This document shows, in pieces, positions 5,147-7,136 of a stretch of DNA of 18,466 nt. How positions within the stretch are numbered: position 1 is the first letter of the stretch; the number at the start of each line of letters is the position of its first letter. The translations under genes and the position numbers were made by a program. The notes under the pieces are model-generated. The model was not told the origin of the DNA and did no database searches. It worked only from the letters and a program-made list of their open reading frames with translations. Origin of the DNA: a virus (Duplodnaviria > Heunggongvirae > Uroviricota > Caudoviricetes); the IMG/VR virus record IMGVR_UViG_2872164251_000003, positions 1-18,466 of that record; one strand, given 5' to 3'.

Positions 5147-6562
5147 ATGGCAGTAAAGATTTCAGGTGTACTGAAAGATGGGGCGGGTAAACCTGTCGTA
5201 AATTGTGCGATTGAACTGCGGGCCAGAAGAACCAGTCCGACCGTTGTGGCACACGTTGTTGCCACTTGCGTGACGGACAATAACGGTGCTTATGTGATTG
5301 AGGCTGAGCCGTGGTATTACGAGGTTGCGCTTCACTGTAACGGCTGGCAGCCAACCCGTGTCGGGGATATTGATGTGGCACCGACTGATGCACCGGGGAC
5401 ACTGAACGCGTTTCTGAATGCACCAAAGGATGGTGATTTACGTCCGGAGGTGATGAAGCGCTTTGAGGAAATGGTGGCGCAGGCGCAGCAGAGTGCCGGG
5501 GCTGCAGCCGGAAACGCACAGCAGACGGCGCAGGATGTGGCGGCAGCCGCAACGGCCCGTGATGATGCACAACGTTTTGCGGAGAAAGCCCGACAGGATG
5601 CAACCGTCACAGCTGAGGACAGAAAGGCCACTGCGGAAGATGTGACAAGCACAGGAGCAAATGCAGCCGCAGCCGGACAGAGCGCACAGGATGCCGCAGG
5701 TTATGCCCGCGCAGCAGAACAGGCCAAAAATGACATTGATGCTGCGCTGACCGGCACCCTGAAAACGGCTAACCATCTGTCTGAAATCGCAGCAGCAGGC
5801 GAAAAGGCACAACAGAAGTCCCGGGATAATCTGGGGCTGAAAAGTGCGGCCACGATGGAAGCACAGAGCGACATTTACGACCGGACAAAAGGCCGTCTGG
5901 CGATACCCGGCGCATTCGGCTTTGGGTGTGCTTTTCTGCCTGAAGATGTTATCCGTTTTGACACTAAGAGTGATTTCCTGGCCTGGGTAAGGAATGCGCT
6001 GCCAGGTGAATATTCCGTTGCTGGCCCTTACGGCATCATCATACCCGACACACGGTTTGAAGGGGTGCTCTGCATCCGGTGGACTGATGCACGCCCTGAG
6101 ACAACAGAACCGCGGTACAGAGCCAAATCCCTTACTTTTTACGGCATTAACGGCCCCATTTATCATACCCGCTACTGCTACTGGCCCATATCCAGACTGA
6201 CTGGCTGGGTGAAAATAAATATAACCACAGAAGATATTATTTACAGAATCGTGGCGAGCTCTGTCCGCAACAGATGGGGAGACCCTGACATTGGCGGGCT
6301 GATTATTGCTGCGTACCAGGGAGAAGCTGACGGTGATAAAGTCATCAGACTTGTCAGGGGGCAGTCATACAGAGGCTCACGACTGGGACCGGTGGGGATT
6401 TCAGTGCCCAGTACTCCCACCGGAACGTATATAGCATCCCCACAATTTTTCATTACGGGATGTTCAGAGCATTCATTACCGGGGTCATATTGCGCCCTGT
6501 CCGGGGTGCCGGATGCACATGTCTCTGGCGCAATGCCCGGGCTTTTTATTCGCACATCGTGA
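5147..6562 (+). CDS. stf: Side tail fibre protein (lambda Stf-like N-terminus, divergent C-terminal domain)
   Basis: Probable true start ATG 5147 (MAVKISGVLKDGAGKPV..., matches lambda Stf N-terminus) in frame with the longer ORF call from 5105; Ala/Gln-rich central region; C-terminal ~240 aa unlike lambda Stf. Confidence 0.8.
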   Translation: MAVKISGVLKDGAGKPVVNCAIELRARRTSPTVVAHVVATCVTDNNGAYVIEAEPWYYEVALHCNGWQPTRVGDIDVAPTDAPGTLNAFLNAPKDGDLRPEVMKRFEEMVAQAQQSAGAAAGNAQQTAQDVAAAATARDDAQRFAEKARQDATVTAEDRKATAEDVTSTGANAAAAGQSAQDAAGYARAAEQAKNDIDAALTGTLKTANHLSEIAAAGEKAQQKSRDNLGLKSAATMEAQSDIYDRTKGRLAIPGAFGFGCAFLPEDVIRFDTKSDFLAWVRNALPGEYSVAGPYGIIIPDTRFEGVLCIRWTDARPETTEPRYRAKSLTFYGINGPIYHTRYCYWPISRLTGWVKINITTEDIIYRIVASSVRNRWGDPDIGGLIIAAYQGEADGDKVIRLVRGQSYRGSRLGPVGISVPSTPTGTYIASPQFFITGCSEHSLPGSYCALSGVPDAHVSGAMPGLFIRTS

Positions 6563-6572
6563 GGAATGCACC

Positions 6573-7136
6573 GTGGAAATTAAAAAAATCATTAATCCCC
6601 GTTATACCGAAAGTGGCGCAGTAGACTGTGACGTTTTTTTTGACGACAGGGACCAGGCAGTCCCCTACACAGCCACCGCTGATGATGTCGCACCGACGGG
6701 TCAGCAAATCTGGCAGGAACTGCAAAGTGGCAAATGGGGTGAGATAGCCCCATTCACTGTGACACCAGAAATGCTGGAAGCGGCCAGAGAGGCCAGACGT
6801 CAGGAAATTGAAGCATGGCGCACAGAACAGGAGGCGAAGCCGTTCACGTTTGAATGGAACGGTCGTATCTGGAATGCTGGTCCCGACTCACTGGGCCGCC
6901 TGTCCCCGGTAGTCATGCTGGCAAAATCTGTCACAGCACAAACACATATGGCGTGGAGCGATGCGGATAATCAGCAGGTGAAACTGTCGATGCCGGAACT
7001 GGAAGAACTGGCGGCAGCAATGGTGCAGGCGCAGGTCGATCGCAACGATGAGATTTATCGCCGTCAGCGTGAAATGAAAGAGGAGCTGAGCGGTCTGGAT
7101 GATTTGGCTTCAATTCGGGCGTTTGACGTTAAGTAA
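6573..7136 (+). CDS. Phage protein downstream of tail fibre, putative tail-fibre assembly/chaperone (family uncertain)
   Basis: ORF immediately after stf in the position of tfa; in-frame GTG 6573 preceded by gagga (6561-6565); the ORF track alternative is ATG 6513, which overlaps the stf 3-prime end. No recognisable similarity to lambda Tfa from memory. Confidence 0.45.
   Translation: MEIKKIINPRYTESGAVDCDVFFDDRDQAVPYTATADDVAPTGQQIWQELQSGKWGEIAPFTVTPEMLEAAREARRQEIEAWRTEQEAKPFTFEWNGRIWNAGPDSLGRLSPVVMLAKSVTAQTHMAWSDADNQQVKLSMPELEELAAAMVQAQVDRNDEIYRRQREMKEELSGLDDLASIRAFDVK

Follow-up and report, generated by a model that had tools for sequence, protein, structure and literature searches.

The 18,466-nucleotide stretch of viral DNA considered here (IMG/VR record IMGVR_UViG_2872164251_000003, positions 1 to 18,466, hereafter the window) carries on its plus strand the distal end of a lambda-like tail operon, composed of J, lom, a side tail fibre gene (stf) encoding 471 amino acids and a small gene ending at position 7136 (Table 1). 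The last two genes are the subject of this study. The first encodes a fibre in which a lambda-type N-terminus is joined to a tip of another family, while the product of the second, a member of the DUF4376 family, is, as far as sequence comparison can tell, very probably a tail-fibre chaperone, possibly acting as a transient cap, in a modular lambda-type fibre cassette. The prophage remnant that holds them is degraded, lambda-like and located in a Shigella flexneri-type chromosome. The exact 471-residue fibre protein is present in NCBI as WP_134799978.1 (S. flexneri), and the exact downstream protein as 'MULTISPECIES: DUF4376 domain-containing protein [Shigella]'. Positions 754–8263 share 98.7% DNA identity with a prophage of enteroinvasive Escherichia coli (EIEC) CFSAN029787, where RefSeq names the pair 'prophage tail fiber N-terminal domain-containing protein' and 'DUF4376 domain-containing protein'.

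The N-terminal region of Stf is of the lambda type, as had been proposed in an earlier note on this DNA. Residues 1–131 match PF08400 (E 4.8e-47, 159.8 bits against a cut-off of 26.6), and residues 1–92 match the 94-residue 'Tail fiber protein' chain of PDB 9e7m (E 3.8e-21), the aligned residues of which are identical to residues 1–92 of lambda Stf/orf-401. In BLASTP, Stf and lambda orf-401 share 49% identity over residues 1–121 (E 2e-32) and nothing further along. The same note held that the C-terminal ~240 residues do not resemble lambda Stf, and this part of the claim stands, as the BLASTP comparison with lambda orf-314 (the C-terminal half of lambda Stf) gave a best E of 0.2 over 13 aligned residues and no homology. 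The extent was underestimated, however: the likeness to lambda ends at about residue 121, leaving ~350 residues that are not lambda-like, of which the last ~240 (232–471) constitute a discrete module. The Ala/Gln-rich shaft between them (residues 132–231) had no significant BLASTP similarity to orf-401; it is alignable with phiP27 L56, and its length differs among relatives. By N-terminal sequence and gene position, the window Stf is a lambda-type side tail fibre; by its C-terminal half, it is not an orthologue of lambda stf.

The tip module belongs, by its profile match, to an uncharacterised yet recurrent phage family, phrog_2636. The tip alone covers profile positions 322–567 of 568, i.e., the C-terminal end (E 5e-102), and the profile is ~100 positions longer than the window Stf. 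No Pfam family matched the tip even at E 10, and NCBIfam gave no match for either the fibre or the DUF4376 protein. When 1.84 billion representative proteins were scanned exhaustively with HMMER, 94 matched the tip at E <= 0.001; the module is C-terminal in most of them, and their lengths are very variable. The AlphaFold2 (AF2) monomer model of the tip (predicted local distance difference test score, pLDDT, 75.8; predicted template modelling score, pTM, 0.50) has mixed beta strands and two helices, and a Foldseek search of the PDB with it returned no significant match, the best being the C-terminal domains of phage K gp144 (E 0.022, TM score 0.24–0.27). The apparent absence of a known fold is treated as a lead and not as a result, because the model, at this level of pLDDT, shows a single chain of what is probably a trimer. 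The tip presumably binds a host surface receptor.

The length of the downstream protein had earlier been put at 188–207 amino acids. The upper figure is the annotated form, which runs from the RefSeq/PGAP start (ATG 6513) and overlaps stf by 50 nucleotides, while the probable form has 187 amino acids and begins at GTG 6573, 11 nucleotides after the stf stop codon. Most family members, including nearly all those outside the Shigella lineage, start at or within one residue of this position. The Shigella/EIEC lineage carries GTG there and is annotated from upstream ATGs, whereas the E. coli relatives have ATG. Judged by this comparison, GTG 6573 is the most likely start of the gene, and the extra 20 N-terminal residues of the ATG 6513 form probably arose in annotation, through the change from ATG to GTG in Shigella/EIEC. 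The gene also appears to be translationally coupled to stf, because its Shine–Dalgarno sequence overlaps the stf stop codon.

The earlier note described this protein as possibly a dedicated chaperone of unknown family; the chaperone part gains support from homology to gp27 of phage V22, given below, whereas the family can be named. The protein matches PF14301/DUF4376 over residues 90–195 of the 207-residue form (E 1.2e-16, 61.5 bits against a gathering cut-off of 25) and phrog_1141 (E 1e-88), and 1,800 relatives, most of them from E. coli and Shigella, came up in a word-indexed search at E <= 0.001. The hidden Markov model searches that the note had proposed thus assign the downstream protein to PF14301 and phrog_1141 and the fibre C-terminus to phrog_2636, the latter with no Pfam family.

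The functional reading is carried by a distant but experimentally characterised relative. An alignment of enterobacterial DUF4376 proteins compared by hhalign with V22 gp27 (MN877442) gave a probability of 91.2% and an E of 9.8e-7 over 149 columns. V22 gp27 is an experimentally shown chaperone, needed for an active fibre and co-eluting with it (PMC7289586; PMC10579305). Similarly, the H-fibre of Campylobacter CJIE1, when placed on a pyocin scaffold, requires the DUF4376 gene that follows it (PMC7882524). Contact of the window DUF4376 protein with the fibre, and its chaperone activity, would follow by analogy with V22 gp27, from which its stoichiometry with the fibre would also have to be taken. 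A literature search on PF14301 and on chimeric side tail fibres returned nothing on the enterobacterial DUF4376 subfamily.

The predicted structure is consistent with this assignment. The AF2 model of the DUF4376 protein (pLDDT 90.5) has strands at residues 3–11, 17–23, and 30–34, helices at 65–88, 104–119, and 140–173, and hairpins at 91–102 and 125–139; from the N-terminus, three strands and a short helix come first, then a long helix, after which two hairpins with a helix between them lead on to the long helix at the C-terminus. The layout agrees with that of V22 gp27 and A5 gp9 as published, the comparison being one of descriptions. A fold search of BFVD, a collection of predicted viral structures, gave 44 matches at E < 1e-3. 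Where a match bears a name, it is mostly that of a DUF4376 protein, from podo-, sipho- and myoviruses with a wide variety of hosts; one is called 'phage tail assembly chaperone'. A PDB sequence search with the protein yielded noise (best E 0.1), and no match to the model in the PDB by Foldseek reached E <= 0.001. Prefoldin beta subunits were returned at Foldseek probabilities of 0.90–0.99 with E 0.1–0.3, and were set aside as an analogous helix–hairpins–helix topology and not a homology.

In the mechanism suggested by these comparisons, Stf residues 1–131 would dock the fibre onto the tail tip, residues ~132–231 would form the shaft, and the exchangeable tip (residues 232–471) would contact the host surface receptor. 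The DUF4376 protein would bind the distal end of the tip, aid its trimerisation and folding, and may then stay on transiently as a cap. In V22 and A5, the partner's N-terminal strands are reported to extend a beta-sheet of the tip. DUF4376 chaperones have been likened to the 'tentacle' domains of T5 pb1 and the K1F endosialidase, which have a helical core and a hairpin, and have been predicted to cap the fibre tip as trimers (PMC10579305). The T5 pb1/K1F chaperones (Peptidase_S74 type) are intramolecular, while the one considered here is a separate polypeptide, and no autoproteolysis is implied.

Several points weigh against the chaperone assignment. The DUF4376 partner in phage A5 is dispensable for fibre activity and binds its fibre more tightly, for which a transient 'cap' role was proposed (PMC10579305); because this partner is dispensable, a strict requirement for the chaperone is not universal. 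In addition, PHROGs and GenBank depositors label DUF4376 proteins 'tail fiber protein' or 'stf2', and the tip model is of only moderate confidence, as its pLDDT and pTM above indicate. Moreover, the T5 and K1F intramolecular chaperone structures were absent from the best 50 Foldseek PDB matches, and no Pfam Peptidase_S74 match was obtained for the DUF4376 protein, so that the published likeness to T5 and K1F was not reproduced.

The labels just mentioned raise the question of whether the DUF4376 protein is instead a structural distal subunit or adhesin, retained on the fibre and contacting the receptor in the manner of T2/T6 gp38 or the retained Tfa of Mu. The name 'tail fiber protein' for phrog_1141 in PHROGs and the depositors' names for homologues ('tail fiber protein', 'stf2', and 'tail4') are in line with such a role, as is A5 gp9, the 'cap' candidate, which largely remains on the fibre after purification (PMC10579305). 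V22 gp27, on the other hand, is easily parted from its fibre (PMC10579305), and the DUF4376 model, with its helical body and hairpins, does not have the beta-rich form of an adhesin. Further evidence comes from conservation, compared pairwise among eight fibre/partner pairs, with ranges given for the temperate coliphage copies. The tips are 30–44% identical, while the DUF4376 partners are 70–83% identical in both their N- and C-terminal halves, the reverse of the pattern that a receptor-contacting element should show. Such an adhesin should diversify along with the tip, whereas a helper that reads conserved structural elements should not. The same trend is seen over a short distance, in comparison with the 98.9%-identical EIEC copy: ~8 nonsynonymous changes and a 3-nucleotide indel in the fibre, mostly in the neck and tip, and one nonsynonymous and three synonymous changes in the DUF4376 gene. 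Because the partner is far more conserved than the tips, a chaperone or cap is favoured, and the adhesin reading is considered improbable.

Another possibility is that the downstream protein is a diverged classical Tfa (Caudo_TAP, PF02413), given that its gene position and size are as in lambda Tfa and that DUF4376 has been likened to the C-terminus of Tfa-Mu (PMC7882524). The earlier observation that the protein does not resemble lambda Tfa holds in each comparison, however. BLASTP against lambda Tfa gave E 0.68, PF02413 did not match at E 0.01 (lambda Tfa itself scores 2.8e-43), and the profile–profile comparison by hhalign gave a probability of 0.8%. Furthermore, P2/Mu-type prophages carry both kinds of helper next to one another, a separate fibre gene preceding each. 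A classical Tfa identity was rejected on the BLASTP, Pfam, and hhalign comparisons, which leaves this reading very hard to credit beside that of a DUF4376 chaperone.

A trace of a lambda-type helper may nevertheless lie immediately downstream. The ATG of a 59-amino-acid open reading frame (ORF) overlaps the DUF4376 stop codon by one nucleotide. Its sole Pfam match is PF02413 (E 0.016; at 15.8 bits, short of the 22.1 cut-off), aligning residues 5–37 with profile positions 66–98. BLASTP against lambda Tfa gave no match for it, and its DNA had no intact tfa match in 5,426 E. coli genomes by megablast, a search that would miss diverged genes. On this sub-threshold match, the ORF is a weak candidate for what is left of a displaced lambda-type tfa.

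Compared with known systems, the module resembles lambda stf–tfa in its workings but is tied to it by the N-terminal domain only, the helper being of the DUF4376 chaperone type represented by V22 gp27. V22 gp26/gp27 and A5 gp8/gp9 also have a DUF4376 protein of ~190 amino acids directly after the fibre gene, with the same predicted architecture of N-terminal strands, helical body, and beta-hairpins (again compared with the published description), and pairs of this type, like that of the window, move between unrelated phage morphotypes. V22 gp27 is only 19% identical to the window protein, though, and the V22 and A5 fibre tips are not detectably related to the window tip, save for a short, non-significant 'LGL.SAAT...GAFGxG' neck. 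Unlike these fibres, the window fibre has a lambda Stf N-terminus. Lambda Stf/Tfa shares with the window pair the place after J and lom (J-lom-stf-tfa in lambda), a homologous N-terminal domain, and the logic of a fibre followed by its helper, but differs in that its shaft and tip (orf-314) are unrelated to those of the window fibre and its helper is of a different family.

Among named phages, the closest relatives are phiP27 L56/L57 and Rac-SA53 tail3/tail4. L56 is 39% identical to the window Stf over its full length and L57 is 75% identical to the DUF4376 protein, and both fall in the same phrog families as the window pair. The phiP27 tip is only ~33% identical to the window tip, however, and Rac-SA53 tail3 has 1061 amino acids with extra fibre repeats. 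In phiP27, an Stx phage, the baseplate is Mu-like and the pair forms a second fibre set, located after the L54 fibre and its PF02413 Tfa.

The earlier note regarded the locus as the outcome of host-range cassette exchange, and the distribution of the tip bears this out. Tips of the same type (31–55% identity) are fused to differing front ends at a conserved neck, '...SRDNLGLKSAATM..QSDIYDRTxGRLAIPGAFGFG'. The front end is of the lambda type (PF08400) in the window Stf, phiP27 L56, and the 1061-residue Rac-SA53 tail3, and of the P2 H type (PF12571) in 416-residue proteins of P2/HP1-like and Mu-like prophages. A lytic phage of the Vequintavirinae, Av-05, and a phiTE-like contig also have the tip, on fibres with N-terminal parts that match no Pfam family. 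Another front end is a segment with the motif 'LNELAAALGNDPNFATT', which may correspond to the middle region of lambda Stf.

The partner travels with the tip. In all eight contexts examined, the next gene after the tip encodes a protein of ~187–192 amino acids. DUF4376 was confirmed in seven of the eight; for SerU-LTIIb stf2, the family was assigned from 70–82% identity to the others and not from a Pfam scan. The partner in Actinobacillus phage vB_Apl-pPE4 was likewise placed in DUF4376 by 72–87% identity and not by a Pfam scan. In phiP27 and the P2/Mu-type prophages, the tip + DUF4376 pair comes after another fibre gene with its own PF02413 Tfa; because a Tfa pair is thus followed by a DUF4376 pair, both helper families are in use within one phage. 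Since the same tip joins differing N-termini in lambdoid, P2/Mu-type, phiTE-like, and Vequintavirinae backgrounds, sequence comparison supports the view that the window cassette is a product of host-range cassette exchange. The earlier note had named two results that would speak against its view, namely, clear homology of the Stf C-terminus to lambda Stf or of the downstream protein to a non-chaperone function; the Stf C-terminus is not orf-314-like, and no homology of the downstream protein to a non-chaperone function was found. The pair is an ordinary mosaic host-range cassette, and both of its proteins are already present in RefSeq and PHROGs.

Some of these relatives have settings of their own. 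In vB_Apl-pPE4 (PP818812.1, 777–3340), the tip is 97.8% and the DUF4376 homologue 85% identical to those of phiP27, a closeness that is surprising for a phage assigned to a Pasteurellaceae host and could reflect either recent transfer or a doubtful host assignment. In the phiTE-like contig (5001–6811) and Av-05 (2473–4292), the tip + DUF4376 pair adjoins a head-fibre gene and, in the contig, also capsid genes, and a large 'tail fiber' gene comes after the pair; the locus is not a baseplate locus. A neck of the form 'LGL(K/G)SAAT...GAFG(F/V)G' also starts the head region of V22 gp26 (gp26 residues 146–175 against Stf ~226–260). The match between the V22 gp26 and Stf necks is not statistically significant (hhalign 2.6%); the shared motif may mark fibres served by DUF4376 helpers.

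Table 1. Features at the distal end of the lambda-like tail operon in the window (positions are those of the window).
Feature	Position	Strand	Basis and remarks
J, tail tip protein (1159 amino acids)	937..4416	+	seven J-specific Pfam domains, E 1e-30 to 1e-41; gpJ in EIEC CFSAN029787
lom (Ail/Lom outer-membrane protein)	4484..5083	+	PF06316, E 1.9e-128; same position as in lambda
Terminator-like hairpin and T-run in the lom/stf gap	5110..5131	+	consensus scan, pattern match only; 8 pairs, 6 of them G-C
stf, side tail fibre gene (471 amino acids)	5147..6562	+	ORF with start MAVKISG and stop 6560–6562; phrog_2636 'tail fiber protein', E 2.5e-217
Stf N-terminal lambda-type tail-attachment domain (residues 1–131)	5147..5539	+	PF08400
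Stf Ala/Gln-rich shaft (residues 132–231)	5540..5839	+	sequence; runs into the neck 'SEIAAAGE..SRDNLGLKSAATM'
Stf C-terminal tip module (residues 232–471), presumed receptor-binding domain	5840..6559	+	phrog_2636
GAGGA Shine–Dalgarno sequence	6561..6565	+	read from the sequence; 7 nucleotides before GTG 6573, overlapping the stf stop
DUF4376 gene (187 amino acids from GTG), presumed tail-fibre chaperone	6573..7136	+	PF14301, phrog_1141
59-amino-acid ORF, possible Tfa (Caudo_TAP) remnant, weak	7136..7315	+	sub-threshold PF02413 match
Terminator-like hairpin and T-run after the two-gene unit	7252..7273	+	consensus scan; 9 pairs, 7 of them G-C
ipaH (LRR + NEL E3 ligase effector), convergent	7316..9079	-	PF14496, E 7.5e-77, and PF12468; junction with the DUF4376 gene repeated 2–6 times per EIEC genome

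In the consensus scan, the stf and DUF4376 genes are together bracketed by the two terminator-like hairpins listed in Table 1. Antisense ORFs of 160 and 242 amino acids across 5121–6166 were judged unlikely to be genes, because they overlap the fibre gene, the product of which has strong homologues.

The present state of the cassette differs from its identity as a module. An insertion sequence, IS1, occupies window positions 1–753, and the prophage begins directly after it, at 754; in the EIEC prophage, this point falls within tail assembly gene I. Because IS1 cuts the prophage there, the cassette is probably a relic in the window genome. It is a somewhat stronger reading, and one favoured by a modest margin of belief, that both genes are inert relics of a dead prophage, whose intact frames merely reflect recent decay. 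Besides the IS1 junction in gene I, this reading draws on the IS3-family copies, the P22-like fragments, and the apparently IS1-split tailspike that lie downstream, as well as on the GTG start of the DUF4376 gene where E. coli relatives have ATG. The stf and DUF4376 ORFs are, however, both intact, a GTG with a good Shine–Dalgarno sequence is a usable start, and, as the window begins inside IS1, a simple insertion with the remaining tail genes upstream is conceivable. Inertness concerns present activity and not module identity, and is therefore compatible with a fibre cassette that carries a DUF4376 chaperone.

The lambdoid tail end shares a 15.8-kb segment with ipaH, IS3-family elements, and P22-like genes, and this segment lies between two IS1 copies in direct orientation (1–753 and 16565–17321; 99.3% identical). 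Within it, two inverted IS3-family copies (9554–10529 and 14803–15779; 99.7% identical) flank the P22-like genes; the transposase ORF of the left copy is split by a frameshift (240 + 154 amino acids), while that of the right copy is intact (296 amino acids). P22-type DNA ejection genes, unrelated to the lambdoid module, occupy 10967–14757 on the minus strand. The gp7 homologue is N-terminally truncated (profile positions 54–230 of 230) and a gp20 homologue (PF16928) is present, while a 614-amino-acid ORF with no Pfam match lies where the P22 gene order would place gp16. A tailspike-like gene on the plus strand (16129–16554 and 17147–18466) is apparently interrupted by the second IS1: the piece before it is pectate-lyase-like, the piece after it matches Tailspike_C (PF21519, E 7.8e-48), and the nominal start of the second ORF lies inside IS1.

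The convergent ipaH gene adds a further dimension. The 191-bp junction between the DUF4376 gene and ipaH (7130–7320) was found in 10 of 5,426 E. coli genomes, two to six times within each, and all the genomes among the matches listed carry ipaH genes. The best 10 junction sites adjoin differing ipaH paralogues (ipaHb, ipaHd, ipaHe, and ipaH3/Hc). Because the junction recurs beside different paralogues, the stf–DUF4376 cassette and ipaH appear, on this sequence evidence, to travel together in several prophages. A literature search on exchangeable effector loci found nothing.

A bolder interpretation combines these observations. The enterobacterial DUF4376 protein would be a near-generic chaperone or cap for a whole family of highly diverged tips (30–45% identity) whose fold has no solved relative, and the stf–DUF4376 cassette, with its conserved 3' junction, would serve as a recombination platform spreading ipaH paralogues among Shigella/EIEC prophages. 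The combined proposal is regarded as rather doubtful. A near-generic helper would read only conserved elements, such as the 'GAFGFG' neck, 'GGLILAAYQG', 'SLPGxYxALSG', and 'GLFxR'. If it exists, one helper gene would be enough to graft any tip of the family onto lambda-, P2-, Mu-, or rV5-type fibres.

For basic biology, the finding carries little weight, as mosaic architecture of this kind is standard in the host-range modules of phages. Its value lies in more practical directions. As the tip lacks both a Pfam family and a solved relative, determining its structure would be a reasonable aim. The conserved neck is a natural place at which to splice chimeric lambda or P2 fibres, and the conservation of the partner suggests that many tips may share one helper. 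DUF4376 proteins occur in thousands of E. coli and Shigella prophages, and these can reasonably be annotated as putative tail-fibre chaperones in place of 'tail fiber protein' or 'domain of unknown function'.

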